Source: Halomicrobium mukohataei DSM 12286
Lineage (GTDB): Archaea > Halobacteriota > Halobacteria > Halobacteriales > Haloarculaceae
DNA length: 32,000 nt
Direction of reading: 5' to 3'
Assembly: GCF_000023965.1 (NCBI RefSeq)
Contig: NC_013202.1
Span: 420,001 to 452,000 of the forward strand
This document shows, piece after piece, positions 4,217 to 25,984 of this stretch (its first letter is position 1; the number at the start of each line of letters is the position of its first letter). The notes under the pieces are model-generated. The model did no database searches, had not been told where the DNA came from, and saw only the letters and a list, made by a program, of their open reading frames with translations. The position numbers and the translations under genes are program-made.

Positions 4217-5239
4217 TCAGATCTGCTCCAGTTGCTTCTTTCGAACCGCCATCTTCTCCTGATTCGTTCGAACGTCGTAGTGCTCGTAGAGCACTTCCAG
4301 CGACACGTCACAACGCCCGCTAACAATCTCCGGAGAGACGTTGCTGTTCAGGTGGTACGTGATACTGCCACGGCGGATGCCGTGGGGTGATCGAGACGAC
4401 GGGCACTTGCTGAGGGTTGCTCCGGTCCCGAGGGCTTCGCAGGTGGACGGGTCCGATGGGTCGGCGTCGTGGGGACACCCGCCGATCACGCAGGGCCGGG
4501 TGAGCTTGTTCACCCACTTGTAGATCGTATCTCCCGTGGGCCGGCCGTGCATCGACGTAATGAGCGGCTCCCGACCGTGGTCGTCAGTGCGCTCGTAGCG
4601 GTCGGGGTTGTCGAGGTAGTCGTCGATAACCTGGTAGTTGTTCGGACCGAGGTAGACCCAGCGCTCGCCGTCTTCCCCGTTCTTGAGTCGCGTGCCCTCG
4701 TCGATTCGGTGTTCCAACACGAGCGCATTGTCGTCGGGGCGGAGGTCGTCGACGTCCAGCGATCGGAGGGCGGACCGACGCATTGCTGTCTTCCACAGGA
4801 TCAGGAAGACGACGTGATCCCGGCTCGCGTAGCGGTACTCGTGGAGGTAGTCGAGAATCCGGTGTGCGCGATCTGCCCCGATGTGGACATCCCGACTCTC
4901 TGCGCCGTCGGGCAGCTCGGGCGCGTGGACCTTCTCGGCCAGCCCATCGTCAACGCCCTCGATGTCGGCCCAGTACCGCAGGGCTTCACGGATCGTCGAG
5001 AGTTGCTTCTGCAGCGTCAGTGCCGCGATGTCGGACCGGCGCCACGCCACGAAGTCGGCTAGATCACGGCCGGTCAGGTGGTTCAGGTTCTCGATGTCCC
5101 GCAGCTCGCACCACTCCTCGAAGAACCGGAGCCGGGTTTTCGCGTTGCGCATGGTCGAGTCGCGCACGGACGGCTCGCAGTGCCGGAGGTACCGTTCGAT
5201 GCCCTCCTCCGGCGAGAGATCCATCAAATCGTCGCTCAT
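4217..5239 (-). CDS. int: Tyrosine recombinase/integrase (haloarchaeal provirus type), paralog of 27346..28356
   Basis: C-terminal catalytic boxes RSPHGIRRGSITYHL (H-x-x-R) and LYEHYD (Tyr nucleophile). 82/112 identical residues, hand-counted, with the second integrase over LSPEEG...SRDVH. ATG at 5239 (MSDDLMD..) matches the paralog's N-terminus better than the GTG at 5269. Confidence 0.85.
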   Translation of the reverse strand: MSDDLMDLSPEEGIERYLRHCEPSVRDSTMRNAKTRLRFFEEWCELRDIENLNHLTGRDLADFVAWRRSDIAALTLQKQLSTIREALRYWADIEGVDDGLAEKVHAPELPDGAESRDVHIGADRAHRILDYLHEYRYASRDHVVFLILWKTAMRRSALRSLDVDDLRPDDNALVLEHRIDEGTRLKNGEDGERWVYLGPNNYQVIDDYLDNPDRYERTDDHGREPLITSMHGRPTGDTIYKWVNKLTRPCVIGGCPHDADPSDPSTCEALGTGATLSKCPSSRSPHGIRRGSITYHLNSNVSPEIVSGRCDVSLEVLYEHYDVRTNQEKMAVRKKQLEQI

Positions 5240-5358
5240 GCTCGCCTCCGCTTTCGCTTCCGGTAGCACCCGAGACAGTGCGGCTCGCCGGGGTAGCAGA
5301 ACTCCTCACAGCCCTCCGTGGCGCACTTGTCCACGTCCTCGATGACGCGGTCGCTCAC
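5236..5358 (-). CDS. Possible 40-aa Cys-rich (zinc-binding-like) basic-tailed peptide coupled to integrase 1
   Basis: Hand translation gives VSDRVIEDVDKCATEGCEEFCYPGEPHCLGCYRKRKRRRA. Its TGA overlaps the int ATG (ATGA). It has only a GTG start and is too short for the ORF track. Confidence 0.3.
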   Translation of the reverse strand: MSDRVIEDVDKCATEGCEEFCYPGEPHCLGCYRKRKRRRA

Positions 5359-6267: not shown

Positions 6268-7056
6268 CTACTCCTCGGGCGTTAGTTGCCATCTTCTAGA
6301 ACTATCGAACGAACTGTGGCCGTTTCTTTCCATTTTCAATCCATAATTGGAGAGATCTGAAGATTCGATCGGAAATGTCACTACCTGTAGGTCTGATTCA
6401 TAGTCTCTGTCAGCAGATCCGCCAAATCTGGTTAAGAATCTATCTTCAACCTTTACTTCATTTATAATACTGTTGACTCCTTGCTCTTCAACAACCACTG
6501 GTTGGCCCTCAAAATACACAGATCCATTGTGCAGTAGACTTGTCTCACTCACTCGGTCGTTATATGCTGTTGCGTCTTCTGTCTGATCCACATCAACTAG
6601 AATTACCACAAATTGTGTCAGATCTTCTGTAACGTTGTCTCCTGTCAAATCCATAGGAACAACTTCTCCCTCGCCTGTTTCGATTGATCCCGTAGTATAC
6701 GCCCTTGTAACAGTAATCTCCAAGCCACCGATCTCTTGTGTGTCTCCTATTGAATGAGTTGAATTTTTGACCGCGAAAATCACTGCCCCCAGGCTTAGAG
6801 TGCCTACCGAACCAATCAGTATACTTCGACGTGTTGAGCTAATATCTTTGGACCCATCATTAAAACGACTATATTTTTTATAAAAATATTGAATCGCGGC
6901 CAAGATAACTGCAATAATCACAGAGATTATAAATGCGACTACAATGCCTGGTCCTAATATTGTGTAAATAAACGCAAAAGGCAGAATTAGGAGTCCTAAG
7001 GCATAGAAGAGATGGATGAGAAATCCGATTGGAGTGAATAAATACTTCAGTGACAT
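6268..7056 (-). CDS. Membrane protein: N-terminal TM helices plus an extracytoplasmic beta-rich domain; hypothetical
   Basis: Listed ORF in a visibly AT-rich block. Hydrophobic helices lie in residues about 8-60 and 78-96, followed by a Thr/Val/Glu-rich domain. Confidence 0.6.
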   Translation of the reverse strand: MSLKYLFTPIGFLIHLFYALGLLILPFAFIYTILGPGIVVAFIISVIIAVILAAIQYFYKKYSRFNDGSKDISSTRRSILIGSVGTLSLGAVIFAVKNSTHSIGDTQEIGGLEITVTRAYTTGSIETGEGEVVPMDLTGDNVTEDLTQFVVILVDVDQTEDATAYNDRVSETSLLHNGSVYFEGQPVVVEEQGVNSIINEVKVEDRFLTRFGGSADRDYESDLQVVTFPIESSDLSNYGLKMERNGHSSFDSSRRWQLTPEE

Positions 7057-7167: not shown

Positions 7168-8220
7168 TCAGACGATCAGATTTAGGCTAAATGAAAGTTC
7201 AATATCGGTTTCAGTGACTGAATATTTACGATGTCGATTCTCACCTTCCACTTCGATCAACTCGTAATCCTCCAGCTTCGAGAGCTTCAGCCGCCTCGAC
7301 CGTTCCGAGATCGGCGTCAGCCCACGCCCATGATATACCTCCTCCGCAACCGCCTCGTAGCGGTCGTGCAACTCCCCAGCTTTCAGTCCACTGCCCACAC
7401 GAATCAGCTCGTACAGTAGCTGATGGTGGAACGGTAGCGACTCCAGATTTTGCTCCAGAATATACCGCTGTGCCCGCTCGTAGGAATCCGCCACATCGTC
7501 GGCCCCGATCTCGCTGTGATCCCGTTCCTCGGCCAGCAGCGCCGCCTGCCGCAACGACTGAATGCCCTTCCGAGCGACGCCGGCCACTTCGTCGGCGATC
7601 TCCTCCAACTGCTCGCGCGTGACCACACCGGACGGTAGCCCACGGCGCGCTCGTGCTTCGAGGATGTCCGCCAGTTCGTTCACGCCGAAGCGGTCGAGTG
7701 CCAGCTCTTTCAGCAACAGTCGTCGACGGAGTTGATTGTCCAGCTGCGAGAGCCACTGCTCTTTGTCGTGGCAGATCGCGACGACCGACAGCCCGTCTAC
7801 GTCGGCCAGCCGGTCCAGGGCGTCGGTGGCCGGCAAGTCGTCGGCCTCGTCGAGGATGACGATCGTCGGCTGGTCGACGCGCTCGCGTAGCTCGATGCAC
7901 AGATCTTCGCGTGGTGTGTTCGTCGCCGGGTCACTGCCGGGGAGATCGTGGAGGATCGATCGAACGACGCCGGCCGTGCTCTTGCCGAGGCTCTCGACGT
8001 GAGCCGAGTGGATGTCTGCGTGCCTGGTGAGCTTCTGGAGGGCGAAGCGGGCGAGCGACGTTTTCCCGACACCGGAGGGGCCGTGAATCAGTACGTCGTG
8101 GGCCTGCTCGCCATCGAGGGCCGGCTCCCACGCACGGGACAGGTGGTCGACGGCGGCTTCACGATGGAGGAGGCGACGCGGCAACTGCTCGTCTTCGAAA
8201 ACAGCGGAGTCCGTGATCAT
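7168..8220 (-). CDS. orc1: Orc1/Cdc6-family AAA+ replication initiator
   Basis: Walker A HGPSGVGKTS, Walker B IVILDEADDL, and a sensor/winged-helix-like C-terminus (LLYELIRVG...KLEDYELIE). The size and layout are typical of plasmid or provirus-borne haloarchaeal orc genes. Confidence 0.85.
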   Translation of the reverse strand: MITDSAVFEDEQLPRRLLHREAAVDHLSRAWEPALDGEQAHDVLIHGPSGVGKTSLARFALQKLTRHADIHSAHVESLGKSTAGVVRSILHDLPGSDPATNTPREDLCIELRERVDQPTIVILDEADDLPATDALDRLADVDGLSVVAICHDKEQWLSQLDNQLRRRLLLKELALDRFGVNELADILEARARRGLPSGVVTREQLEEIADEVAGVARKGIQSLRQAALLAEERDHSEIGADDVADSYERAQRYILEQNLESLPFHHQLLYELIRVGSGLKAGELHDRYEAVAEEVYHGRGLTPISERSRRLKLSKLEDYELIEVEGENRHRKYSVTETDIELSFSLNLIV

Positions 8221-8296: not shown

Positions 8297-9205
8297 TTAA
8301 TTCAGAGCAGCTTCCATCGCTGTACGGACCTCAGAGAGCGCCTCTCTGTTGTCATACTCGCCGTTCGTCACAGAGATGAATCCTGTCGATTCCTCCTCTT
8401 CCGGAACCCAGATCTGAATGAATCCCTGTGATCCCTCAATTACGGAGTCCTTCGATATCGGCTTCTGCCATAGCTGTGCCTCTCTTCCTCTGTACATGGG
8501 ATTAACTCCATCTGGCAGTGGTTTCGTGGTCTGGTATCGAAAGTCTGGGTCGTCGTCCAGTACCGAGAGAACATCACCGCTGATGATGGTGTCTCTGGCC
8601 GTCTGCTCAACTTCGTCGTAGAAGATGTCTGCGACCTTTCGAATGAGTTTTTCCAGATTCTTTGTGGGGACCAGTCGGTTTACGTCATCCAGAATCTCTG
8701 CTTCTTTCTGGGCGGGGGTCGCATTGAGTCCGACGTTGAGTTCCCCATTGCGGGGATCCCTGTAGAACGCAACATGTGCCTGCGCTTTTGATCCGGGCTG
8801 ATAGGTGTCGGGAATTCCAAGAAGAGCAGCATTCTCCAGTGATTTTACCACATCAAATTCCTTTGCCAGATACGCACGAAGAGCCATCATGTCATCCTTG
8901 CCCGGGGAAAGAGAAAGCAGAGAATACAGAGTATCACTGTCTGGATTATCGTCGTCGTAGAAGAATTCGTGTCGAGAATATCCATCGAGGGCTATCCATG
9001 TGAGGTGGTTTACCGGGCCATCGTCTGCAAAGATTACGTCTTCAACGCTGTGCTCAACCGCATCAGGGAATTCTTCAACGAAGATGTCTTCCAGTTGCTT
9101 GAAATCAGATTCTGGATCAATTTCGTACTCTTCAGGAACGTCTTCCAGCATTCGGTCGCGCTCTGATCCGGGCAGTAAAAAACGGTACGGTATGAAATGT
9201 TCCAA
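8297..9205 (-). CDS. Hypothetical 302-aa protein, third gene of the wHTH/glycosylase operon
   Basis: Listed ORF in low-GC DNA, 52 nt downstream of the glycosylase gene on the same strand. The start at 9205 is TTG; the next in-frame ATG is at 9151. No motif recognised. Confidence 0.6.
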   Translation of the reverse strand: MEHFIPYRFLLPGSERDRMLEDVPEEYEIDPESDFKQLEDIFVEEFPDAVEHSVEDVIFADDGPVNHLTWIALDGYSRHEFFYDDDNPDSDTLYSLLSLSPGKDDMMALRAYLAKEFDVVKSLENAALLGIPDTYQPGSKAQAHVAFYRDPRNGELNVGLNATPAQKEAEILDDVNRLVPTKNLEKLIRKVADIFYDEVEQTARDTIISGDVLSVLDDDPDFRYQTTKPLPDGVNPMYRGREAQLWQKPISKDSVIEGSQGFIQIWVPEEEESTGFISVTNGEYDNREALSEVRTAMEAALN

Positions 9206-9257
9206 TCGTAATTGTCAGCCTCATAGTACGTATCCCGTCATACCGTTGGAGACCTGC

Positions 9258-10046
9258 CTAGTCTGGTCTTCCCTGCTCTGATTCGTAATAACTGCAGGCA
9301 GAATTTAGCGGACACGAGGGACAGTCTGGATCTTCTGAAGTACAGACGAGGGCTCCGAGATCCAGAATAGCGAGATTGAAGCTTCGCGCGAGATCTGGAT
9401 CGTCTGGAGTGAGAGCCTCCATGAGGGCATATACGTCGTCGCTCTTGTGTGGCTGTGATGGCATCTCGTATCCCAGAACTCTTCCAATGACTCGTGCAAA
9501 GTTCGAGTCGACAAGTGCCATTGGCTGCTCCCGGGCAAACAACTGGGTTGCCCGGGCCGAGTAGTCTCCAACTCTCCACGGGCGTTTCAGCTTATCTAGA
9601 GAACCGGGTACCTCACCACCGAAGTCTTCTGTGAATATCTCTCCCACTTCTGTCAGAGTCCGTGTTCTGTGATTGACGAAACCAAGTGATCGGACCACAT
9701 CTTCAATTTCCCCTTCCGTAGCCTCTACCAGCGTTTCGGGATCCGGAAACTGGCGGAGAACGTCATCGTATATCTTCTCTACAGCATTACCGCGGGTACG
9801 CTGGAGTAGAATTTCGGCGAGATATACTTTCCATGGGTCCGTTGTCTCTCTCCAGAGATAGACTCTGCCGTTGGCTTCGAGCCAGCTCAACAGTTCAGGT
9901 ACTGTCTCAATGAACTCCTGAATCCTCTCTTCTGGCTGATTTACATTGCCTGTTTTTGCATGTTCTACAGCCAGATCTCTATCGACCAGTGAGTCTATTT
10001 CTTCTGCCGAAACCTCTGTTTTACCGAACGGCAATCTGAGACCCAT
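9258..10046 (-). CDS. HhH-GPD DNA glycosylase with [4Fe-4S] cluster loop, MutY/Mig (T:G or U:G mismatch)-like
   Basis: LAEILLQRTRG (compare MutY EVMLQQTQ). HhH region VGDYSARA has Tyr where EndoIII has Lys and MutY has Ser. Catalytic-Asp block LVDSNFARVIGRVLG. Cys loop C-x7-C-x2-C-x5-C (CTSEDPDCPSCPLNSAC). Confidence 0.8.
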   Translation of the reverse strand: MGLRLPFGKTEVSAEEIDSLVDRDLAVEHAKTGNVNQPEERIQEFIETVPELLSWLEANGRVYLWRETTDPWKVYLAEILLQRTRGNAVEKIYDDVLRQFPDPETLVEATEGEIEDVVRSLGFVNHRTRTLTEVGEIFTEDFGGEVPGSLDKLKRPWRVGDYSARATQLFAREQPMALVDSNFARVIGRVLGYEMPSQPHKSDDVYALMEALTPDDPDLARSFNLAILDLGALVCTSEDPDCPSCPLNSACSYYESEQGRPD

Positions 10047-10048
10047 AT

Positions 10049-10303
10049 CTATCGCTTCAGGTCCTCGATCAGTTCGTCACCCTTCTCCGTAGAAGTCCAT
10101 AGGCGTCCTTTCTTTTTTTCTGGTGTTATACACTCAGCGAGGCCGTGACTATCGAGATCAGATAGAACATTGCTCACATGGCTCAGATAGTAGTCTGTTA
10201 TTTCGGAGAGTTCCTTTGGAGTTCGGGGTTTCTCGTCCATGGCGAGAAGGAGCTTCTCCCGGTACTCACTCGCCTTCACCCACGAGTATTCCTCAACGTC
10301 CAT
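10049..10303 (-). CDS. Small winged-helix (ArsR/MarR-like) regulator, possible controller of the R-M cassette
   Basis: 84 aa. PRTPKELSEITDYYLSHVSNVLSDLDSHGL has an HTH-plus-wing pattern. Its stop lies 2 nt before the glycosylase ATG. Divergent from the methyltransferase gene. Confidence 0.7.
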   Translation of the reverse strand: MDVEEYSWVKASEYREKLLLAMDEKPRTPKELSEITDYYLSHVSNVLSDLDSHGLAECITPEKKKGRLWTSTEKGDELIEDLKR

Positions 10304-10419
10304 TCAGGCGTGTGGATAGGCCGCAGCAAAGTATTTAACTTGGTTACAATATACACACAAGATAGCCACATGAACCGGATAGGAACTTTAAACGATCACG
10401 ACTCCATTGGTGACTACAG
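10304..10419. promoter_or_regulatory. Divergent promoter region between the wHTH operon and the MTase gene
   Basis: TTTAAA at 10387-10392 lies 28-33 nt upstream of the MTase ATG. TATTTAA at 10332-10338 (TTAAATA on the minus strand) lies 29-35 nt upstream of the wHTH ATG. This spacing fits leaderless archaeal transcripts. GGATAGG occurs twice (about 10311 and 10378), and the 12-mer AATATACACACA sits at 10348-10359. Confidence 0.5.
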
Positions 10420-11778
10420 ATGAGCGAAGAACGGCTTACAGCTATCGACCTGTTCTGTGGAGCCGGCGGACTTTCTCAGGGGCTTCACGATGCGGGATTT
10501 GAGACACTCTGGGGCATTGATCACGAGGAGAATACCAAGCCAACGTACGAGGCAAACCACGACTGTGAGATGACGGTCGGAGATATCCGGGAAGAAGAAC
10601 CACCGGATCTCGGACTGGAGGAGGGAGAACTCGATCTCGTCGCAGGTGGGCCGCCCTGTCCGACGTTTTCACTTGTGGGCCGGAGCAAAATCAATTCTAT
10701 CGAGGGCCGGGACAACCAGAGCGACGATCGTCATCTACTGTACGAAGACTTCCTCCGTTTCGTAGATCACTACCAGCCCAAAGCCTTCCTGATGGAGAAC
10801 GTCGAAGGGATGCTCTCGGCAGAAAATGAAGACGGAAAGCCGGTCGTCGATACCATCAAGGAACAGATGCGTGGAGAGCGAGAAGTTGCAGATCTTGACC
10901 TCGATCTAAATTACAGTGTTCGAGTCCAGCTGCTGGATTCAGCAGACTACGGGATCCCCCAGCACAGAAAACGTCTCTTCTTCATCGGTAACCGTATCGG
11001 CGAAGAGAATCCGGACATGACTGAGTGGGAAACCCACCGGAAGCCGAAGAACGAGGAAGAGAAGAAAATCAAATACAAGGAAGACCCATCAGAGCGATCT
11101 GAGGAAGACCAGTCCACATTGCACGGGTTTGTGGATGAAGATGGGACCGAAGAGTTCCCTGCCTTCCGCAAAAACAGACAGAGCAAGGAGCCATGGAACA
11201 CAGTAGCTGATGGCATTCTCGATCTTCCTCCTGTTTCCCCCAGTGGAGATACACCACCGACCAAAGCAGAAGAATACGAGATTGGTCCCGTCTCAGAATT
11301 CCAGTACTGGGCACGGAATCTCAGCGAGGAACAGGACTGGGAAGATCAGCCCCTTCTAAATCACGAGTGCCGGGGACACAACATGCGTGACCTCACCCTC
11401 TACAAGCTCCTCGGGGAGGGTACCTCGTACATCATCGGAGACATCCCAGAAGAGCACCAGCCGTATCGGACCGACATCTTCCCGGACAAGCTAAAGAAGC
11501 AGAACCCGAAAGAACCTGCAACAACGATTGTGGCCCATCTCTACAAGGACGGGCATATGTTCATCCACCCGAACGAGGCTCGATCGATTACGGTGCGGGA
11601 AGCTGCTCGACTTCAGTCTTTCAAAGACACCTTCGAGTTCCCGGTCTCACGTACACACGCATTCAAACAGGTCGGTAATGCCGTCCCACCACTTCTGGCA
11701 CAGGCTTTAGCCACTGCTATCCGAACAGAAATCTTCCATTCCCCAGTAGAGAGAACTGAACCTCGAGAGGCTTATTAA
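10420..11778 (+). CDS. DNA (cytosine-5)-methyltransferase
   Basis: Motif I DLFCGAGGLSQG, motif IV GGPPCPTFS, motif VI ENVEGM, motif VIII QHRKRLFFIG, motif IX REAARLQSF, motif X GNAVPPLLA. A long Lys/Glu-rich variable region lies between VIII and IX. Confidence 0.95.
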   Translation: MSEERLTAIDLFCGAGGLSQGLHDAGFETLWGIDHEENTKPTYEANHDCEMTVGDIREEEPPDLGLEEGELDLVAGGPPCPTFSLVGRSKINSIEGRDNQSDDRHLLYEDFLRFVDHYQPKAFLMENVEGMLSAENEDGKPVVDTIKEQMRGEREVADLDLDLNYSVRVQLLDSADYGIPQHRKRLFFIGNRIGEENPDMTEWETHRKPKNEEEKKIKYKEDPSERSEEDQSTLHGFVDEDGTEEFPAFRKNRQSKEPWNTVADGILDLPPVSPSGDTPPTKAEEYEIGPVSEFQYWARNLSEEQDWEDQPLLNHECRGHNMRDLTLYKLLGEGTSYIIGDIPEEHQPYRTDIFPDKLKKQNPKEPATTIVAHLYKDGHMFIHPNEARSITVREAARLQSFKDTFEFPVSRTHAFKQVGNAVPPLLAQALATAIRTEIFHSPVERTEPREAY

Positions 11779-11789
11779 ATACACTAACT

Positions 11790-13445
11790 TTAGTCTTCTC
11801 TACTCAGCACCTCTTCGATATTATTGAACGTTAACCGCGGCTGCTCTTCGGTGTAGGTTTCAACTTTGAACGGATGCCACTCTTCTAATATTATCATCTT
11901 GTCACGGTCAGTGTGTGCTCTTGCAAATGTATATCCGCCGTCATTCCACTGTGATCCACCAGCCTCATAGATCTCTTTTTGCTTCCAAGCATCACAAACA
12001 CTGCCAAGTGGGCAGGTCATGCAGAGGGCACCTCGGCGATTACCCAGAGTACTACCGACTGACCACAAGATATGATCCAGCTCTGCTGGTGCTCTGCTAA
12101 CCTCAGCCGCCAGTTCTTGCCATACTCGCCGACATACTTGATCGAGGTCACTGCGCTGAAGTTCTATTCCCTCTTTAGTGACCTCTTCTTTCTTCCCATC
12201 TTTACTAGCTTCGAATGTAACGTCTTCTTTGGCAGTTGTTTCTATCTTTAGTAGTCCGAGATTCAGAGTGACACGGATTATTTGTGCATCTACTGGCAAA
12301 TTAAAATTTTCAACTTGGTCCCGACTCACGCCGTTGAGAAGATCATATCCACGCTCATTTTTTGTCATTAACGTGAATAGTAAACGGCCAATTTTCTTTG
12401 AAAATGAAAACTGTATCCCTATACGATCTCTTGCATCTTCTTTGTCAAATTTTTCAATTTTTGATTGAACCTTCTCTAAGGCATCTGGATCTGAGGTATT
12501 GACACCCAATTCGTTTGCAATCTGTTCAAAGAAGGTTCTTGGGTCACCATTACATCGATCCCGTAGATACCGAATCATAGCTATCCAGTCTCCGATTACT
12601 CCTTCAAAAGAACGACGCAACAGCCCAGAGATCCGATTTAATATGATTTTTAGAATCTTTTCTCTTTCACCATCACTCATTTCTAACAAAGTGTCCCACT
12701 CCTCTGAATCGGGTTGGAAGAGAAATGGATACTTAGACTGAAGGTCCAGTAACTCAGAAATGAATACTTCAGATGGAGCGGTATTTCCATAATCTTGTAA
12801 TGATCGAATAAACAGGAATGTTGCCTGCTCAACCTCATCTGGTATCTGTTGGACAACTTCTTCTCGTTTCGAGCCGCCTTTCATTTGCTGAATAAATACT
12901 TCTGTTTCGTCTGAATCAAATGGATCTATTTCAGCAATCTCCTCTATTTTCTTTTTTGAGATCCTTCCCTTGAACCGGAAATTCTCTCTACTCCTCATCA
13001 GCTCAAATTCGCTACCATCTGACTTCCCTACAAATTCAACGTCATATGCTTCGAATGAGTAGCCACTCCAGAGATAGAGAAGATTTTGAAACTTAATTTT
13101 AGAATGTTGGACAAGATCTACAGAGTTTGTTGCTTGGGCTATATCAACAAGTAATTTTTCTATTGCACTACTAATATCTGTGTTTATCTGTCCAGATATA
13201 GACGCATCATAAAGTCGGACCTTATCTTTTCTGTCGTATGTTGTGATACTATAATTCTTAGCAGTTAGGTCTATGTCCCATCTATCAACTTCATCTAAAC
13301 ATTCACTTACTCTACTTATCACCTGTGTCTTGAGACAATCTGTGTGGTTTTCGATCAGACTATTATCCTGAATGTCCTTTTCTTTTGGAATATCTATGAC
13401 AAGTTGGATAGAATTCTCGAACGAGCGACCATTAGAGCTGTTCAT
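11790..13445 (-). CDS. Uncharacterised 551-aa protein; the C-terminal roughly 200 aa resemble an HhH-GPD-superfamily (DUF2400/EndoIII-like) domain with a Cys loop
   Basis: Listed ORF with ATG start, 9 nt after the stop of the upstream 357-aa gene. KKIGRLLFTLMTK...NLPVDAQIIRVTLNLGLL resembles the PxD-x4-RV-x3-LGL block of EndoIII/TIGR02757-type proteins. CMTCPLGSVC gives C-x2-C-x5-C. The N-terminal half has no recognisable motif. Confidence 0.65.
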   Translation of the reverse strand: MNSSNGRSFENSIQLVIDIPKEKDIQDNSLIENHTDCLKTQVISRVSECLDEVDRWDIDLTAKNYSITTYDRKDKVRLYDASISGQINTDISSAIEKLLVDIAQATNSVDLVQHSKIKFQNLLYLWSGYSFEAYDVEFVGKSDGSEFELMRSRENFRFKGRISKKKIEEIAEIDPFDSDETEVFIQQMKGGSKREEVVQQIPDEVEQATFLFIRSLQDYGNTAPSEVFISELLDLQSKYPFLFQPDSEEWDTLLEMSDGEREKILKIILNRISGLLRRSFEGVIGDWIAMIRYLRDRCNGDPRTFFEQIANELGVNTSDPDALEKVQSKIEKFDKEDARDRIGIQFSFSKKIGRLLFTLMTKNERGYDLLNGVSRDQVENFNLPVDAQIIRVTLNLGLLKIETTAKEDVTFEASKDGKKEEVTKEGIELQRSDLDQVCRRVWQELAAEVSRAPAELDHILWSVGSTLGNRRGALCMTCPLGSVCDAWKQKEIYEAGGSQWNDGGYTFARAHTDRDKMIILEEWHPFKVETYTEEQPRLTFNNIEEVLSRED

Positions 13446-13454
13446 TTTGATAAT

Positions 13455-14528
13455 TCAGGTATTGTCGGTGAGTCCCGTGAATTCTACAATGTCCTCGATA
13501 AACTCGTCTGCTGGACGGAGTGTATACGAGAGATCTGAGTCGTCTTTATAGCGATTCCAGACGAAAGAGTCTCGCGGTACATAGATTCTGCTGCCGTCAT
13601 TGCTGATGTCCTGTACTTTCTCTCTGGAAACGTCTGCCATGAGTAGCGAAACGAACCAGACCTCGTCAACCCCTATCTCGGCTTCCCGTGAGAGACTCTG
13701 GCGAAATCGCTCTCGGAGAGTTCGTTTGCAGGAGAATCCAATGCTGCCCTCTGGTCCTTCGACCATGTTGTCTATTTCGAGATCTCCGAAATGAGCAGGA
13801 TCGCCTGTGGCGGGAATTCCAAACTGATCGAAGATGTACTGCAGACCGGTCTCAAGCACGTTCCCTGCCGTAGATGCTCGACTCTGTCCCGCACGACGTT
13901 CGTATTCCTGAACAATGCCAGAGACAATCCTCGCTACTTCTTTTTCCTCGATCTGTGGGTCCGACCGGAGATCTGCCATCTTCTCATAGATGTAATCAAT
14001 GAGCGGCTCCCGCTGGGCACCGAGCTGGTAGGCCTCTCCCTCGAAGTCAACGTTGAACAGGGCATCGTAGGTTCTGGCCGGATCTAGGGTCCCAGATTCT
14101 GTCTGGAGGGTTTCATCGACTATTTTGATGATCTCTGACTTGCCGAAGCTCGGCGTAGTTTCCAGAATCTCACTGGTTCGGACCACTGCATCTATCGCAA
14201 TTCGAAATTCGCGGATGTCATCCTCTGTGTCGATCCGTCGAAGGATCCGCTCAACGAGATCTTCGGTTTGTCTGTATCGTTTTGAGACGTCACCGGCATA
14301 CGTCTTATTGACAGAATCCGTGATCGTATCCCGTATTATGCGCTTTTGCCGGTCGAGAGATGAATCGCCACTGAACCGTTCGTCTTCGAGTTCCTCACCC
14401 AGCCGTGTTGAAAGCTGCTTGAGTGTTGGCTTCTCTTTTTTGGCGTAACTCCCGTAACTGGAGGCGATGAGATCTCGCGCAAACCAGTACACCTTGAACT
14501 CGGAGGGATCTCCGGAATAATCTGCCAT
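13455..14528 (-). CDS. Putative type II restriction endonuclease, Cfr10I/NgoMIV/EcoRII-C-like PD-(D/E)xK catalytic domain with an unknown N-terminal domain
   Basis: ERRAGQSRASTAGNVLETGLQYIF, then GDLEIDNMV, then GFSCKRTLRERFRQ (S-x-K-x-T-x-R-E-R, compare Cfr10I SVKTSLRPDR as I remember it), then ...IYVP. It lies next to a C5-MTase, which is the partner type of that family. Confidence 0.55.
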   Translation of the reverse strand: MADYSGDPSEFKVYWFARDLIASSYGSYAKKEKPTLKQLSTRLGEELEDERFSGDSSLDRQKRIIRDTITDSVNKTYAGDVSKRYRQTEDLVERILRRIDTEDDIREFRIAIDAVVRTSEILETTPSFGKSEIIKIVDETLQTESGTLDPARTYDALFNVDFEGEAYQLGAQREPLIDYIYEKMADLRSDPQIEEKEVARIVSGIVQEYERRAGQSRASTAGNVLETGLQYIFDQFGIPATGDPAHFGDLEIDNMVEGPEGSIGFSCKRTLRERFRQSLSREAEIGVDEVWFVSLLMADVSREKVQDISNDGSRIYVPRDSFVWNRYKDDSDLSYTLRPADEFIEDIVEFTGLTDNT

Positions 14529-14641
14529 CTATCATCGGCGAGGTGAGATAATCTGAAGAAAATAGATTACATCTTAAGCATAATATACACACATCTCCCC
14601 ACTCTCGTCCCGCGAAAATAATCTGTAGCTATCTGTAAGTA

Positions 14642-14899
14642 TTAGCGCCAACGACTTTCCACGCTCGTCCGATAGCGTAACCCGATCACGCTCGTGTTGA
14701 ACCGCTGGATCGTCTCGGGGTCCAGCTCCCCACGCGCGCTGTCGATGTTCTCCTTGCTCTCGACGAGGTGGGTCAGCGCCGCATCCAACACGTCGGACAT
14801 CGGTGGGTCGTCGTGAGGGGCGCTGGCGACGATCGCGCTGGCTTTGTCGAGGAGTCGCTGCCGTTCGTCGGTGATCTTCAGGCTGGTGCGTCGAGTCAT
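14642..14899 (-). CDS. Hypothetical protein (possible ribbon-helix-helix-like N-terminus)
   Basis: Listed ORF with ATG start. SLKITDERQRLLDKAS looks like a beta-strand plus helix. It is the first GC-rich gene after the low-GC cassette. Confidence 0.45.
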   Translation of the reverse strand: MTRRTSLKITDERQRLLDKASAIVASAPHDDPPMSDVLDAALTHLVESKENIDSARGELDPETIQRFNTSVIGLRYRTSVESRWR

Positions 14900-15041
14900 G
14901 GTTTAAACTGGTGTATGTACGGGGGGTCGAATCGCATCGCTCGCGAGTGAGCGACTGGGTGGTTCTTGATAAACGGGGGTCGGGGGTCCGGCGTGATCGG
15001 TCCGAACCGTCGGCCCGACCGGCTCGAATCTATGCACCGTA

Positions 15042-15062
15042 GCCCACGGCCCACAGCCCACA
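15042..15062 (+). repeat. Tandem heptamer (GCCCACR)x3 enclosed by the 8-bp inverted repeat TATGCACC/GGTGCATA (15031-15038 / 15063-15070)
   Basis: Read directly: GCCCACG GCCCACA GCCCACA. The flanking arms are exact reverse complements. Confidence 0.8.
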
Positions 15063-15122
15063 GGTGCATACATCGAGGATCGGCGATACATCTGGCTCGA
15101 ACCCCGTGGGGTCGGGGTCGCA

Positions 15123-15305
15123 TCATGGGCTGACCAGCTCTAATCTGTAGTCGCCCTCGTTGTTCTCGTCGAGGGACTGGACCTTCGCCCAGTGGTCGCC
15201 ATTCAGCTCGCCATCCTCGTCGACGATCCCGCGTTCGCGAAGATCTTCGATCGGAATCGAGACGGTTACACAGCCGCCCGCCGGAGAGAGTTTGCGCATC
15301 TCCAT
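15123..15305 (-). CDS. Small protein, possible AbrB/SpoVT-like DNA-binding fold
   Basis: 60 aa. GGCVTVSIPIEDLRERGIVDEDGEL resembles the swapped-hairpin pattern. Divergent from the structural operon. Confidence 0.4.
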   Translation of the reverse strand: MEMRKLSPAGGCVTVSIPIEDLRERGIVDEDGELNGDHWAKVQSLDENNEGDYRLELVSP

Positions 15306-15330
15306 GCTGCCGGCCCTGCAGTCTCGTTAC

Positions 15331-15336
15331 TTTAAT
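15331..15336. promoter_or_regulatory. TATA-like box TTTAAT (ATTAAA on the minus strand) in the divergent region
   Basis: Lies 26-31 nt upstream of the minus-strand ATG at 15305 and about 33-38 nt upstream of the plus-strand GTG at 15369. Confidence 0.4.
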
Positions 15337-15431
15337 CCTCGGGTGAGTCCCGCTAATCCCGTGATTCGGTGCTTTCTAGGAGGTCGACTGCACCCGCCGA
15401 ACACGGTCGCAATCGGCGGCCGGGTTCCACC

Positions 15432-15863
15432 ATGTACGGAAAGATCGACATCGAAGACGCGCTGTTCGGCACCATCTTCGCCGCCAGTGCGTTCGTGACG
15501 AACGGAATCGCGACGATCAACATCCTCGGGAACGACCTGGGCGCGGCGGTGTGGACCGGACAGGGAACGGAGATCACCTTCGCGTTCCTGCTGACGCTGG
15601 TGTCGCTGTTCGGAGCCTACGCGACGAATCGCGTGAACCGCTCCAGCGGGAAGTCCTACGAGATCGACACTGACCTGGCGAACATCGCCCGCGGTGAGGC
15701 ACCGATCGAGACGTACCTCGCCGTCGGAACGGCCCTGCTCGTCCTCGTGACCGGGCTGAACATCCTCGGCGCGCAGGAAGTCATCGCCGGCACCGCCGCG
15801 TTCGGCCTGGTCGTCGTCGCCGTCGAGGCCTCGGGCTACTACGTCATCAGCTACATGGGGTGA
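15432..15863 (+). CDS. Small integral membrane protein (pleolipovirus VP3-like position)
   Basis: Four hydrophobic helices. Its stop overlaps the next start (GTGA). ATG 15432 was chosen; the alternative GTG 15369 would add an Arg-rich 21-aa extension. Confidence 0.6.
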
Positions 15864-16105
15864 TCCTCGTGAGGCTCGATACACTCCTCGGCTACGGCCT
15901 GCTCGGCACTATCGGCGTCTCCGCCTCGACGATCGCCGCCGCTGTCGTCGGCCAGCCCTTCCCCGTCGTCGTCCCGACGATCTTCGCCGCCGCCGTCGTC
16001 GCCGCCCACCACGTCCGCACGAAGGACTCCGATCCATCCGACGACCAGCTCGACGACGCGACCGGCGACGCTCCAGCCGTCGCTACTGATGGGGGCCGGC
16101 AATGA
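15860..16105 (+). CDS. Small membrane protein
   Basis: GTG start overlaps the upstream stop, and its own stop overlaps the next ATG (ATGA). Two hydrophobic helices and an acidic tail. Confidence 0.5.
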
Positions 16106-17874
16106 GAGACCGACAGACGATCACCCGGCGCGGGCTGATAAAGACCGTCGGCGGGACGGCCGCCGTCGGGGCCGGGCTCAGTGCCACCAACGGCACGGCC
16201 ATCGATCCCGTCGGAGAGGCTGACGCCATCGCGTGTGGCGGTGCTTGTCTCGTCGCGGTCGGCATTGCAGGAGCGGCCGCCGTCGGCATGGTCACTGGTG
16301 CGGTTGCCGCGCATCATCTCGGACAAAAGCGTCAGGACGAACTCAGCGGGAGCGAGGAGACTGCCGACCTGCACGCCAATCTTCGCAGCCGACTCACAGC
16401 CCTTAAGGCCGCCAACAACAGCGTTCTCACGGGCGTGCAGAACCGCATCAAAGACGCCCGAAACGTCGCCTGGCCCGAGGCGAAGAAGGAGGCCATCAAG
16501 GCGTTCAACAATGGGGACGACAAGAGCGCAGTCAAGACCGCCGGCAAAGACCCTGTCGACGCGCACTATGTCACCATCCAGCAGAACATCCTGAACCGCG
16601 GGACCGAGTGGGCTAACACTATCCAGTACATCACTGACCTGCACGAGTCCGACTCCGGGCTGTCTCAGCCCGACGGCGGCACCCCGGCGTTCCGCATCAC
16701 GTCAGAACACAACTACGATGGCTCGTCCCGACAAGTCACCCTGTCGCCACACGAGTTTTCGATGCTGGAGACGACGACAACCCTCGTCGACGGCCAGTCG
16801 TTCACGCACAAAATCATCCGGGCTAACGAGTCCGACAACAGCACACCGAATTTCCAACACGAAGTCGACCTCGACCCGACCGGTATCACCGGTCGCATCA
16901 CCGACGGTTCCTCGTCCTGGGCTGGTGTCGCCTCGGCTACCGTCGATCCGGTCGAGACTGGCTCGACGGCCACCTGGCTGAACCTCGGTGCCTGGGACTC
17001 CGCCTGGTCGGCCATCGTCGACGACCACAGCCAGATGGTGAGCAATATCCAGACGTTCGTCGAAACGCTGTTCGAGAACCACAGCCCCGGCGACATCGAC
17101 GTGAGCGAATACATCGACGCGACCACCCTCGCTAGCGAGTTTGCAACCGACTACGAGAATACCGGATACCGCGCCTACGCGGCCGCTGAGGCCGCAGTCG
17201 CAGGGATTCCGGGCAGCATGGACCAATCCATGCAGATCCGTCTCGAAGACTCTGGCATTGAGGTGCGCGGATCGGTCTGGACCGAGTGGCGTCCCTACGA
17301 CGGATCGTCGACGGCCACCACGACCGAGACCGCAACCGAGACTGCGACCGAGACCGCGACCACGACCGAGACCGAGCCGGCGAACTCGGCCTTCGAAGTC
17401 GGCACTACCTACGACCCCAGCAACACGAACAAACTGGTGTTGATGAGCTACGAGTTCCAGGGCGAAGGCTGGATTCAGGGCTCCGATGTGTTCGTGAAAG
17501 ACGACTCCGACAACTGGACGCAGGACACCAATATTACCAGCGCCGACGGATGGACCGCCCTCGACGGCGAGAAGATCCAAACCGGGTACGGCGAACTGCA
17601 ACAGCCGTTCACTATCCTCTCGGCACAGGATACTGAGACCGGTGAGGACGTGGACGTGGTCGGGACCGAATCACGCAATCATCAGACGGCTGAGGTGGAT
17701 CTGACCGAGGAACAACTGCAAATGATCCTCGACTATCGCAAGACGGTGCGTAACAACGACAGCCCTGGCGGTGGAGGCGGCGGGGCCGGCTTCCTCGGCG
17801 GTGGCTCAATCGATCCAACAGTTGCCGGCCTCGTCGCGGCCGGGTTGGTTGGCCTCGGTCTCCTTAGTAGGTGA
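16102..17874 (+). CDS. Secreted, membrane-anchored envelope/spike-like protein (pleolipovirus VP4-like position)
   Basis: Tat-type signal TRRGLIKTVGGTAAVGAG, a Thr/Glu linker, a Gly run and the C-terminal hydrophobic anchor VAGLVAAGLVGLGLLSR. Confidence 0.75.
   Translation: MRDRQTITRRGLIKTVGGTAAVGAGLSATNGTAIDPVGEADAIACGGACLVAVGIAGAAAVGMVTGAVAAHHLGQKRQDELSGSEETADLHANLRSRLTALKAANNSVLTGVQNRIKDARNVAWPEAKKEAIKAFNNGDDKSAVKTAGKDPVDAHYVTIQQNILNRGTEWANTIQYITDLHESDSGLSQPDGGTPAFRITSEHNYDGSSRQVTLSPHEFSMLETTTTLVDGQSFTHKIIRANESDNSTPNFQHEVDLDPTGITGRITDGSSSWAGVASATVDPVETGSTATWLNLGAWDSAWSAIVDDHSQMVSNIQTFVETLFENHSPGDIDVSEYIDATTLASEFATDYENTGYRAYAAAEAAVAGIPGSMDQSMQIRLEDSGIEVRGSVWTEWRPYDGSSTATTTETATETATETATTTETEPANSAFEVGTTYDPSNTNKLVLMSYEFQGEGWIQGSDVFVKDDSDNWTQDTNITSADGWTALDGEKIQTGYGELQQPFTILSAQDTETGEDVDVVGTESRNHQTAEVDLTEEQLQMILDYRKTVRNNDSPGGGGGGAGFLGGGSIDPTVAGLVAAGLVGLGLLSR
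17311..17376 (+). repeat. In-frame ACC-GAG-ACY-GCR repeat encoding TATTTETATETATETATTTETE
   Basis: Read directly from the sequence inside the spike-like gene. Confidence 0.8.
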
Positions 17875-23868: not shown

Positions 23869-25626
23869 CTACCCCCCGGACCACTCATCGGCGGGCGGAC
23901 ACCCGGCAGCCTTCCAGGCTTCGAAGTTGAAACCCTCGTTCCGGCGTTCCTGCTGCTCTCTGGTGATGTACTCGCCGCTCCGTTGGCCCTGGAACACGTT
24001 CCGTAGGTCTCGGAAGCGATCACGCGCACCGTCGGCGTAGGTGACGACGACGTGGACACCGTAGACGTTGTTCTCGACAAACTGCGTGTACGCCGTCTTC
24101 ACTTCGCGCATGATCTCGCGGGCTTCTGCTCGATCCTCTGGCTGGTAGCCCATCTGGAGGAGCTTTCGGCAGTCGTCGCCCTCGCGGACGGTGATCGCGT
24201 ACTCGCGCCGGAGTCGACTCCAGCGGGTCTTCTCCTGCTCCTCTGCGGCGTCGGCCAGATCCATCACAGCGCTGCCGACAGACTGCTCGAAGCGCTCACC
24301 GGCTGCCCTGACGCGCTTGAGTAGCTCCTGCTGGATCTTCTTCGACTCCAGTTCCATCTCACCGTAGGTGTGGTGGATCAACCCTTCCAGGCGGTCGATC
24401 ACCGTGCGAATCGTCCGGTAGGTGTAGCCCGTCTGCTCGGCCGCTTCCTGTGGCGAGACCTTCCCACCGTCGGTGAGTAGCAGCTCGGTCACGTCCCGGT
24501 CGGCCCGGCTCATGTCGCCCCACAGGTGCATCACGCGATGCTCCTGCTCGTCTTCGATCTCCGGCAGCGGGCACTTGACGAGCTTCCGGGCTTCTGTGGT
24601 GTCTTCGACCGACCAGTACGGATCAAACTCGACGAATGCACCGCTGTCGGCAGTGGTGGCGATGCCGGTCCACTCCAGACAGTTGAGGATCGTCTCTTCC
24701 AGCTCACGCCGAGCGTCGTCGAGGTCGCTCCACCGAACGGTGTCGTCGGTACGACTCGTCTGGTAGGACACCTCGAATTTCGGATGGTACGGCGCGTCAC
24801 CGGGTTCGTACTCGTCGGGGTGGTTCGGGTAGTAGTGTTTCAACTCCTTGCCGAGCCCATGTCCACGGACCAGCTCGTCGGCCTTCTCGTCTTCGACGGT
24901 GGCAGTGACGTAGTAGCCGGGAAGCTTCGTGTTGTCTTCGACGTGTTTCCGGTACCCGCTTCGATCACCCTGAATGAGTGTGTGGCACCGAGCGATCGGG
25001 CCATCCGGGGCGTACAGCGGGCCGCTGGCGTCGCGGTACAGTCGGACGTAGTAGGCCAGGTCGCTCACGTGGCTGTCCGGGTGGGGCTGGTCGAAGTAGC
25101 GCGATGAGATGCCGTAGGCATCTATCACGCGCTGGACCAGTGTGAGGTACTTCTCGTGAGGAATGTTCGAAGCCTGAACCTGCACGTCGATGTAGGGCTC
25201 ACCGTAGTCGGGGACCGAGACGGGTTTGCCGTCGGACGTAAGGTTCGGCCAGCGGGGGCGGACGGTGATCGTCCCGCCTTTGATCCGTGGGTCCTGGTCG
25301 GCGGGCTCGCCGGAGTAGTGGGGCGAGTCCTTGGCGACGAAGTAGAACTGGAACTCGCGAACTTCCTCGATCTCGAAGCTGGGGTTGTCCCACGGGTCCA
25401 GCCCGCTCTTCGAATAGTCGAAGGCCGTCGCCCACTGCTGGCCGTTGAATCCGATGTCACGGGTCGGTTTCCCCTGGGTTTGCCAGCGGTCGCCCCACTC
25501 TTTCATCAGGGAGTGCATCGCATAGTAGGGTGCCAGCCCGTGGTCCTGAACGGCTGGATCGGGATGCACGCCGACGGTAAAGCGCACGTCGCCCTCGTGC
25601 GGGGCGCACTTGAGGTACCGCGACAT
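23869..25626 (-). CDS. Large conserved mobile-element protein, putative replication/initiator protein with an internal HTH
   Basis: 585-aa ORF with ATG start and non-repetitive composition. GGKVSPQEAAEQTGYTYRTIRTVIDRLEGL is HTH-like. It is the last gene of the ZnF/Dam/HTH operon. Assignment to a replication role is by position and size only. Confidence 0.6.
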   Translation of the reverse strand: MSRYLKCAPHEGDVRFTVGVHPDPAVQDHGLAPYYAMHSLMKEWGDRWQTQGKPTRDIGFNGQQWATAFDYSKSGLDPWDNPSFEIEEVREFQFYFVAKDSPHYSGEPADQDPRIKGGTITVRPRWPNLTSDGKPVSVPDYGEPYIDVQVQASNIPHEKYLTLVQRVIDAYGISSRYFDQPHPDSHVSDLAYYVRLYRDASGPLYAPDGPIARCHTLIQGDRSGYRKHVEDNTKLPGYYVTATVEDEKADELVRGHGLGKELKHYYPNHPDEYEPGDAPYHPKFEVSYQTSRTDDTVRWSDLDDARRELEETILNCLEWTGIATTADSGAFVEFDPYWSVEDTTEARKLVKCPLPEIEDEQEHRVMHLWGDMSRADRDVTELLLTDGGKVSPQEAAEQTGYTYRTIRTVIDRLEGLIHHTYGEMELESKKIQQELLKRVRAAGERFEQSVGSAVMDLADAAEEQEKTRWSRLRREYAITVREGDDCRKLLQMGYQPEDRAEAREIMREVKTAYTQFVENNVYGVHVVVTYADGARDRFRDLRNVFQGQRSGEYITREQQERRNEGFNFEAWKAAGCPPADEWSGG

Positions 25627-25784: not shown

Positions 25785-25984
25785 GCTGCGCCACCCCCCA
25801 ACCGTCGACGAGCCCGTCGGAGCAAATTGCCTACAGTACCAGGCGATCGTCCCGTCTTCCGCGCGTACTCGCGAACCCCATAGCCGTCCTGCTCGACGGC
25901 TTCATACACCTCTCGCTCGGCGTCAGAGAGTGGCGACAGGTCCTTTTCGTACTCGAAGAGGTTGGACTGGTAGGTCACCGCCAC
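25781..25984 (-). CDS. Small HTH protein, sigma-70 region-4/LuxR-like; paralog of 28353..28571
   Basis: LSDAEREVYEAVEQDGYGVREYARKTGRSPGTVGNLLRRARRRL. 33/50 identical residues, hand-counted, with the paralog. Confidence 0.6.
   Translation of the reverse strand: MAVTYQSNLFEYEKDLSPLSDAEREVYEAVEQDGYGVREYARKTGRSPGTVGNLLRRARRRLGGGAA

Follow-up and report, generated by a model that had tools for sequence, protein, structure and literature searches.

The chromosome of Halomicrobium mukohataei DSM 12286 carries, within the 32,000-nucleotide stretch of DNA analysed in this work (hereafter the window), a gene cassette that is probably a Type II restriction-modification-repair cassette and the cargo of an integrated SNJ2-like pleolipovirus, in which a gene for a 551-aa protein is a real accessory and a 302-aa open reading frame (ORF) a passenger. 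Its four-gene core comprises a candidate restriction endonuclease (R), a C5-cytosine DNA methyltransferase (M), a putative winged helix-turn-helix (wHTH) protein and a probable Mig-type glycosylase (V), and it follows an already known design, that is, 5-methylcytosine (m5C) restriction-modification together with a Mig-type analogue of Vsr. The six genes are consecutive in the public annotation (ACV46581-ACV46586), where they appear as hypothetical, base excision repair/HhH-GPD, transcriptional regulator, DNA cytosine methyltransferase, hypothetical, and hypothetical/'restriction endonuclease'. The original prediction, an earlier reading of this DNA, had placed six ORFs here and all six are present in the sequence, arranged as follows:

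8297-9205, minus strand: 302-aa ORF, apparent passenger; TTG start (RefSeq has 284 aa from the ATG at 9151)
9258-10046, minus strand: V, probable Mig.MthI-type HhH-GPD/[4Fe-4S] mismatch glycosylase, 262 aa (PF00730, 1KEA, pocket residues)
10049-10303, minus strand: putative winged-helix (ArsR/TrmB-like) regulator, 84 aa; weak Pfam matches; first gene of the glycosylase operon
10304-10419, no strand: probable divergent promoter/operator separating M from the wHTH-Mig operon (TATA-like boxes and a conserved block; putative regulatory role)
10420-11778, plus strand: M, C5-cytosine DNA methyltransferase, 452 aa (PF00145, TIGR00675, motifs); convergent with the R operon
11790-13445, minus strand: predicted AGOG-like HhH-GPD glycosylase/lyase-type protein, 551 aa ('A family'); same operon as R and directly downstream of it
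13455-14528, minus strand: R, Type II restriction endonuclease candidate, 357 aa (CCGG family, Ecl18kI/PspGI/EcoRII-C branch)

The restriction-modification and repair core

Co-occurrence was analysed by phmmer searches with the window proteins against ORFs translated in six frames from 79 genome loci and from additional loci, which are cited below by their numbers. The four genes recur in one order in ten halophile loci besides the window (nine for the wHTH gene). The order of the core genes, with R convergent with M and, on the other side of M, a divergent wHTH gene followed by Mig, is kept in L001-L003, L005, L007, L080, L099 and L100. Their hosts are Haloferax, Natronomonas, Haloarcula (two species), Haloarchaeobius, Halobacterium and Halalkaliarchaeum, together with one metagenome contig (L080) that ends before Mig. 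The same arrangement, with an undetectable wHTH, is found in L004, from a nanohaloarchaeon. This conserved core and the family matches described below support the m5C restriction-modification cassette, with a Mig-like glycosylase as Vsr analogue, that had been proposed originally. The six-gene system that was also proposed is not supported as a fixed unit. Regarding the two extra partners, the gene-neighbourhood analysis retained the 551-aa ORF, a recurrent, though optional, methyltransferase partner, and discarded the 302-aa ORF as a passenger.

The 452-aa protein matched PF00145 (E 1.7e-63) and TIGR00675 (E 8.6e-52), and motifs I, IV, VI, VIII and X of C5-methyltransferases are readable in it (DLFCGAGG, GGPPCPTFS, ENVEG, QHRKR and GNAVPP, in this order). 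It is a C5-cytosine DNA methyltransferase, and orthologues at E<1e-200 are present in all the halophile cassettes.

The 357-aa protein had been described as a Cfr10I/NgoMIV/EcoRII-C-like nuclease, and a profile of 46 sequences of its family points to the CCGG family, in the Ecl18kI/PspGI/EcoRII-C branch. The three top matches of this profile in the PDB were R.Ecl18kI (E 4.4e-6), PspGI (1.3e-3) and EcoRII (6e-3), a single-sequence PDB search with the 357-aa protein being empty; furthermore, two of its homologues have a precomputed PF09019 match. Residues E226 (aligned to E125 of Ecl18kI), E251 and K268 are invariant in the family and D253 is nearly invariant, and the segment S266-C267-K268-R-T-L-R272-E273-R274, invariant across the 46 members, aligns to SAKTTLRER of Ecl18kI and VKRKVRER of PspGI. 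The CCGG family is defined by an R-(D/E)-R recognition motif located on the helix after the catalytic Lys (PMC4652773). The AlphaFold2 (AF2) model of the protein, with a predicted local distance difference test (pLDDT) score of 87.9, comprises a helical domain at the N-terminus (about residues 1-235) followed by an alpha/beta catalytic domain at the C-terminus. We found 97 homologues, mostly haloarchaeal but also from Salinibacter, Nanohaloarchaea and Methanonatronarchaeum, while a scan of species genomes yielded 184 relatives, mostly bacterial, and a scan of viral contigs only three relatives, all bacterial. Nine bacterial loci were inspected: a 250-280-aa SPPY-type methyltransferase lies directly upstream of the nuclease in eight of them, and in L036 (Selenomonas) the nuclease relative stands beside a C5 methyltransferase and a true Vsr. 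The bacterial members thus pair with SPPY-type (N4/N6) methyltransferases, unlike those of the halophile cassettes, and a methyltransferase adjoins the nuclease family in every locus inspected, bacterial or halophile. From these sequence comparisons we conclude, with moderate support, that the 357-aa protein belongs to a genuine family of restriction endonucleases within the Ecl18kI/PspGI/EcoRII-C branch.

Site counts were pooled from eight halophile cassettes (34.4 kb, 86 palindromic words). CCWGG was the most depleted of the 86 palindromes (12 observed, 73.9 expected, z -7.2), although the cassette loci share ancestry and the statistic therefore overstates their independence; CCSGG and GGWCC were not depleted in the pool. 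The window cassette contains no CCWGG, 11 CCSGG and 13 GGWCC sites, and CCWGG is mildly depleted (ratio 0.80) in the high-GC flanks of the window. Because this avoidance comes together with the family assignment of the nuclease, the likely target of M (and R) is CCWGG, the EcoRII/Dcm/PspGI site. The prediction is not extended to the bacterial branch of the nuclease family, since site avoidance there is ambiguous (GGCC 0.40, also low in the flanks, and CCWGG 0.53). Other palindromes are depleted over the whole window, namely CTAG (0.25), CTCGAG (0.20), GGCGCC (0.29) and GAGCTC (0.30). A CTAG N4-methylcytosine (m4C) methyltransferase is conserved in haloarchaea and the CTAG depletion fits with it; the other three may reflect further restriction systems in the host.

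The 262-aa protein belongs to the HhH-GPD family (PF00730, E 4e-15), and its best solved relative is Mig.MthI (1KEA; E 1.2e-33, 119.8 bits), followed by MutY (E 3.7e-26, 95.3 bits) and EndoIII (64 bits). It falls far under the NCBIfam equivalog cut-offs for MutY and Nth, and it matches the REBASE-derived PADLOC model PDLC03398, 'Type II nicking endonuclease' (V-type genes), at 2.2e-34. When aligned to Mig, the relevant residues read F27->Y, R47->R, A50->G, Y126->Y, D144->D and L187->L. The positions that discriminate Mig from MutY are A50 and L187 (PMC2714593), and in our alignment MutY carries V and Q/E at these pocket positions. The protein also has a C-x6-C-x2-C-x5-C [4Fe-4S] loop (CTSEDPDCPSCPLNSAC) and the catalytic Asp at Mig D144, and it lacks the MutY C-terminal domain. 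The Tyr of VGDYSARA (Tyr126 of Mig), which had been taken as the marker that separates Mig from MutY, is present but cannot serve for this purpose, as the MutY of B. (G.) stearothermophilus has Tyr in the same column (alignment; PMC2714593). Family searches gave no match to Vsr (PF03852) among the proteins of the region, and the 262-aa protein is not a Vsr member. We infer that it is a Mig.MthI-type T:G mismatch glycosylase that would act as a functional analogue of Vsr.

The small HTH protein of the original prediction corresponds to the 84-aa wHTH, which has weak winged-helix matches in Pfam (HVO_A0261_N, 6.6e-4; ArsR, 6.7e-3; also TrmB-type). Its position is unchanged in L001-L003, L005, L007, L080, L099 and L100, where it is conserved with E-values of 1e-34 to 1e-51. 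The region between M and the wHTH gene contains two TATA-like boxes (TTTAAA and TTAAATAC) and a conserved block, GTGTGTATATTGTAACCAAGTTAAATAC, which is kept in the window, L001-L003, L007 and L080, and partly in L005; it is probably a divergent promoter/operator. An inverted-repeat operator was sought in this region and none was found. Controller (C) proteins of restriction-modification systems are Xre-type HTH proteins that bind C-boxes and whose gene precedes the restriction gene and is transcribed together with it. The 84-aa wHTH protein is not a classical C protein, as it is not Xre-type and its gene precedes that of the glycosylase and not that of the nuclease.

Several points weigh against this reading of the core, besides the shared ancestry behind the site statistic. 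The score of the 357-aa protein against Pfam EcoRII-C (E 2.5e-4, 21.6 bits) is under the 25-bit gathering cut-off, which leaves the support for the nuclease assignment moderate. Its D253-K268 spacing of 14 is outside the published PD-X21-53-K, and E282 (K+14), which would correspond to the last residue of the PD-X21-53-K-X12-13-E pattern, is not conserved. Foldseek with the full-length 357-aa model gave no match below E 0.05, probably because the helical domain dominates the comparison. The wHTH matches of the 84-aa protein are weak and its regulatory role is only putative. Finally, unrelated defence-like genes can also occupy the slot between R and M (L100, see below), so that some of the co-occurrence could be defence-island clustering.

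The closest known counterpart of this core is the MthTI/Mig.MthI system of the Methanothermobacter plasmid pFV1, in which a C5 methyltransferase and a restriction enzyme are likewise linked to an HhH-GPD/[4Fe-4S] T:G glycosylase that counters 5-methylcytosine deamination, and the 262-aa protein has the Mig-type pocket residues and Mig.MthI as its best solved relative (PMC2714593). The cassette differs from it by its CCGG-family nuclease, by its mesophilic halophile host and by its carrier, a pleolipovirus-type provirus rather than a plasmid. In addition, the 262-aa glycosylase has about 50 extra N-terminal residues and an operon of its own led by the wHTH gene, and a second, AGOG-like glycosylase-type gene is added. 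Whereas MthTI recognises GGCC, the target predicted here is CCWGG. With EcoRII, PspGI and Ecl18kI/SsoII the cassette shares a nuclease family that has the K-x3-R-E-R recognition motif (PMC4652773) and the predicted CCWGG site. Unlike EcoRII, the 357-aa nuclease has no EcoRII-N effector domain and presents a helical N-terminal domain of about 235 residues without detectable relative; unlike the EcoRII, PspGI and Ecl18kI systems, the cassette would be regulated by a separate archaeal wHTH protein. The pairing of an m5C methyltransferase with very-short-patch repair is common to Dcm-Vsr of E. coli, and the L036 relative uses a true Vsr; in the cassette described here, repair would be performed by a glycosylase and not by a Vsr endonuclease.

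Around the core, two slots exchange their contents. The slot after Mig holds an EVE-like gene (L001-L003, L100) or a B-family gene (L004, L005; this family is described in the next section), or is followed directly by Orc1 (L099). The R/M slot carries the 551-aa gene, a BsaWI-like nuclease or, in L100, four unrelated genes, and it acts as a hot spot at which defence-like cargo is inserted. The BsaWI-like CCGG-family nuclease (234-235 aa, with SCKTSFRER) overlaps the 357-aa gene at its end and occupies the place of the 551-aa gene in L099 (10071-10775), L003 (11071-11778), L001 and L002. It has no methyltransferase of its own in L099, and in L001-L003 it stands beside a 210-aa protein with PPC/ENP motifs, possibly a small C5 methyltransferase. 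The four genes in L100 (Halalkaliarchaeum desulfuricum, 10225-15543) are unannotated and encode proteins of 566, 549, 520 and 137 aa, the 549-aa one with a weak SMC/LmuB resemblance (PADLOC E 9e-7). The EVE/PUA-like stand-alone protein after Mig has about 150 aa (L003 14980-15429, L001 6495-6947, L002 14932-15390, L100 18104-18559) and matches Pfam EVE at E 7e-4, below cut-off; EVE domains are thought to read modified bases.

The 302-aa ORF has 18 haloarchaeal homologues; family searches and a single-sequence PDB search with it gave no match. The readable contexts of these homologues (beside RNase J, an MFS transporter or DUF5786) contain no methyltransferase and no glycosylase. The gene is also absent from all the other cassettes, including that of the closest provirus (Haloarcula taiwanensis), where there is none between Mig and Orc1. 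It was therefore rejected as a component of the system and, judging by these contexts, is a passenger gene.

The 551-aa protein and its methyltransferase partners

The family of the 551-aa protein is rare. A word-indexed search retrieved the protein itself and one relative at 55% identity, and an exhaustive HMMER search of 1.84 billion representative proteins brought the family to 16 members; a scan of viral contigs found none. A single-sequence PDB search was empty, and the family profile matched ROS1 (2.4e-3), MutY (0.02) and AGOG (0.04), the matches covering the Asp helix and the Fe-S loop. The alignment revealed an invariant LPVD386xQxxRVxLNxG motif; in 12 aligned sequences D386 never varies and the conservation of K351 is at least 90%, and the Cys motif of the protein consists of C298 and C475-x2-C478-x5-C484. 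Pfam reports a 'weak' AGOG match on the homologues P0099 and P0118, and the family profile matches the Pfam-AGOG protein of L088 with 53.6 bits and with the Lys, Asp and Cys motifs in register.

The AF2 model (pLDDT 80.5) consists of a beta-rich N-terminal domain (1-162), a helical core and a beta-hairpin insertion (399-429). Foldseek matched it to QNG1/DUF2419 and Tga-AGOG with probability 1.0 (TM-scores 0.49-0.58) and to other AGOG structures with 0.85-0.97, at overall TM-scores (target) of 0.35-0.58 and E-values of 0.01-0.08. K351 is located at the N-terminus of helix 350-360, the second HhH helix, and D386 caps helix 387-396, the two being 35 residues apart; the catalytic pair of Pae-AGOG, K140/D172, is 32 residues apart (PMC9638937). 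From sequence and model, the 551-aa protein is predicted to be an AGOG-like HhH-GPD glycosylase/lyase-type protein with a Lys/Asp pair. It shares with AGOG the HhH-GPD fold and the HhH Lys and GPD-motif Asp at an AGOG-like spacing (PMC9638937), and with Fe-S HhH enzymes including ROS1, of the ROS1/DEMETER group, the C-x2-C-x5-C loop. Unlike AGOG, it is twice as large, with the extra N-terminal beta-rich domain, the beta-hairpin insertion (399-429) and the Cys loop; its family is always linked to methyltransferases in cassettes and is not housekeeping, and the similarity in sequence is marginal (E 2e-3 to 4e-2).

A DNA methyltransferase adjoins the 551-aa family in 11 of the 11 informative contexts. 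The relative at 55% identity, in L080, occupies the same slot, with a 4-bp overlap with the nuclease gene and convergent with the methyltransferase. Long forms (523-524 aa) occur in L085 and L094 with a C5 methyltransferase, Mig and the B family, in L098 with a true Vsr and a C5 methyltransferase, and in L093 with a true Vsr on a contig that ends before any methyltransferase. Short forms (402-486 aa) stand beside one N6_N4 methyltransferase family in L087, L088, L092, L096 and L097, and a MvaI/BcnI-family nuclease is also present beside the short form in L087 and L092. The family is co-transcribed with Vsr in L098 and L093 and with the methyltransferase in L094, L092 and L097; in L085 the relative is located in the position of the restriction gene, behind a helix-turn-helix gene. 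Cassettes of the C5 group contain no CCNGG (17.2 expected) and those of the N4 group six CCWGG (20.2 expected), an avoidance signal that rests mainly on two related cassettes with both A and B families. These contexts indicate that the 551-aa gene, predicted to be co-transcribed with the nuclease, is a real, optional but recurrent accessory.

The B family comprises 530-565-aa proteins with conserved CC and C-x2-C-x5/6-C motifs (L085 2560-4152, L094 7584-9188, L004 4271-5929, L005 13591-15285). Its gene follows Mig directly in two halophile cassettes; in two low-GC archaeal cassettes, which have no recognisable nuclease, it accompanies the 551-aa family. It gave no match in Pfam, PDB or PADLOC, and its origin as a diverged paralogue of the 551-aa family, considered on account of PxDxW and CxxC motifs, was rejected (hhalign probability 0.7%). 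Short forms of the 551-aa family in L087 and L088 face, in convergent orientation, a gene for a transglutaminase-like (Cys-protease fold) protein of 442-486 aa (L087 6803-8131, L088 2411-3871), and L088 has a small AGOG-like protein with the same Cys loop nearby.

The provirus carrying the cassette

The cassette lies in an island with a GC content of 39-55%, compared to 62-68% in the flanks, that is an integrated SNJ2-like pleolipovirus provirus (window 4217-28356). The window is syntenic gene by gene with the pleolipovirus element of Haloarcula taiwanensis (L099), which contains an integrase, Orc1/Cdc6, DUF7386, DUF8053, VP3 (PF26064), an HRPV-type spike (PF26255), DUF8063 and DUF7845; the haloarchaeal mobile element that had been suspected as carrier is thus supported. 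An SNJ2-like provirus with intergenic att sites was previously described in strain DSM 12286 (PMC5861418, PMC10123103), and a search for tRNA genes found none in the window. The provirus genes identified in the window are:

4217-5269: tyrosine integrase
7168-8220: Orc1/Cdc6
14642-14899: DUF7386
about 15369-15863: VP3-like gene
16102-17874: spike-like 590-aa protein
23869-25626: DUF7845

A second integrase at 27346-28356 suggests a duplication or two adjacent elements. At the far end of the island there is also a D12-class (Dam-like) N6-adenine methyltransferase (25975-26829, minus strand; PF02086, E 8.5e-21) with no obvious nuclease partner. A predicted membrane protein, also of 262 aa (6268-7056, minus strand; GC about 45%), is encoded between the integrase-proximal genes and Orc1, with no family match and no counterpart in the syntenic Haloarcula provirus. 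A near-identity DNA search with the cassette gave no phage match and a single match of 191 bp, to a Haloarcula plasmid, inside Orc1/Cdc6 (window about 8027-8217), just upstream of the cassette, and neither the 357-aa nor the 551-aa protein had a tblastn match in plasmids or phages.

Proposed functions of the cassette and of the 551-aa protein

According to our model, the C5 methyltransferase would methylate the inner cytosine of CCWGG, and the 357-aa nuclease would cut unmethylated CCWGG in incoming DNA, such as that of superinfecting viruses. The Mig-type glycosylase would remove T (and U) from the T:G mispairs that arise by 5-methylcytosine deamination, the corresponding repair being done by Vsr for Dcm in E. 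coli, and the winged-helix protein would set expression from the conserved divergent promoter.

For the 551-aa protein we tentatively propose, without holding it to be probable, a role as a second arm of restriction that works by base excision and is blocked by methylation: at unmethylated CCWGG the protein would excise a base, after which its lyase lysine would nick the abasic site. This restriction role is ranked slightly ahead of the others because the methyltransferase partner is constant, with either chemistry, the lyase-type dyad is retained, the relative in L085 is in the position of the restriction gene and some nuclease-less cassettes avoid the site. Two restriction genes under one methyltransferase have a precedent, since the closest provirus holds a second CCGG-family nuclease, without its own methyltransferase, in the slot of the 551-aa gene. 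It is possible, though doubtful, that the whole family constitutes a second superfamily of restriction by base excision, structurally unrelated to PabI and blocked by m5C (long forms) or m4C (short forms). Its members would act alone (in cassettes with Vsr, the A family and M), with the B family, or as a back-up to a classical nuclease, and the provirus would use a two-armed restriction, phosphodiesterase plus glycosylase, against competing viruses. If so, the likeness to R.PabI (HALFPIPE), the sole precedent known for this principle, would be in the excision of a base when methylation does not block it, the nick by an apurinic/apyrimidinic (AP) lyase activity and the cognate methyltransferase (PMC10273834). 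The differences are that the 551-aa model matches HhH-GPD structures and not the half-pipe of PabI or CcoLI, and that PabI is the sole restriction gene whereas the cassette has a phosphodiesterase too. Other data weigh against a restriction role. The PDB and Foldseek E-values for the 551-aa protein are marginal (2e-3 to 3e-2). A canonical nuclease accompanies it both in this cassette and in the MvaI/BcnI loci, which makes it dispensable as a restriction enzyme. Furthermore, the B family, instead of the 551-aa family, could be the nuclease of the cassettes without a known one, and the cassettes of L098 and L093 are too short and AT-rich for their zero CCWGG to be informative.

Two other functions would fit a glycosylase in this place. 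The 551-aa protein could be a modification-directed defence glycosylase (ROS1/DEMETER- or Dag-like) that complements the nuclease, attacking invader DNA that escapes it by m4C in place of m5C at CCWGG, by full 5-methylcytosine substitution or by viral hydroxymethylation. Its best PDB profile match is the 5-methylcytosine glycosylase/lyase ROS1 (E 2.4e-3), although the match is marginal and depends on motifs that are generic, the Asp and the Fe-S loop. A Lys/Asp pair is typical for the removal of modified or damaged bases (PMC9638937), and HhH glycosylases against modified phage DNA exist, some of them clustering near AGOG (bioRxiv 10.1101/2025.10.29.685425), but the known Dag enzymes stand alone, without a tie to a methyltransferase. 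The distribution of long forms with C5 and short forms with N4/N6 methyltransferases would fit the sparing of the host's mark, and the R/M slot takes other defence genes too. However, excision of 5-methylcytosine would endanger a host that methylates its own CCWGG, unless the context protects it, and the confinement of the family to CCWGG-avoiding cassettes is left without explanation; we regard this function as rather unlikely. Equally hard to favour is a repair enzyme, a second anti-mutator beside Mig/Vsr, for lesions made by a base-flipping methyltransferase or nuclease at CCWGG-type sites, such as uracil from enhanced cytosine deamination. C5 methyltransferases promote C-to-U deamination of their target, and the co-transcription of the family with Vsr or with the methyltransferase in the loci named above is much like that of vsr with dcm. 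With PspGI, a nuclease related to the 357-aa protein, the central base pair is flipped and cytosines at CCSGG are deaminated more often (PMC1557792). Nevertheless, pure repair does not explain the CCNGG avoidance in cassettes without recognisable nuclease, and the lyase-type lysine kept by this family contrasts with the usual monofunctional character of glycosylases for normal or mismatched bases. Nucleases of the MvaI/BcnI type are not known to flip the central pair. Moreover, Mig already covers U:G and T:G (PMC2714593), which would make a second enzyme redundant in the C5 cassettes.

It is very improbable, in turn, that the cassette is a decaying or orphan remnant, in which the methyltransferase and Mig were kept for an epigenetic or anti-mutator benefit, the 357-aa and 551-aa genes were inactive and their clustering reflected defence-island or hot-spot insertion in the provirus. 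Orphan methyltransferases are common in Halobacteria (PMC6471742) and the R/M slot does swap its cargo, as described above. All the ORFs are intact, though, and identity among the nucleases of many haloarchaeal genera is 44-93%, the catalytic and recognition residues being invariant. The about six-fold avoidance of CCWGG also argues for live restriction pressure, and the 551-aa gene is found at 55% identity in the same slot of a second lineage.

These results suggest that the combination of an m5C methyltransferase with Mig, the solution of a thermophilic methanogen plasmid, occurs widely among mesophilic haloarchaea and nanohaloarchaea and in their temperate viruses, joined here to an EcoRII/PspGI-like nuclease, and they provide a concrete prediction, CCWGG, for the target of an uncharacterised restriction enzyme family. 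They also define the 551-aa family as a set of rare AGOG-like proteins tied to methyltransferases of two chemistries, to CCWGG-type cassettes and to distant archaeal lineages. PabI was presented in a 2023 review as the only restriction-glycosylase superfamily (PMC10273834). If the 551-aa protein were a restriction glycosylase, it would break the view that the PabI fold alone performs restriction by base excision; if it were a methyl-directed or a repair enzyme, it would add a new layer to the way in which restriction-modification systems handle cytosine modification.

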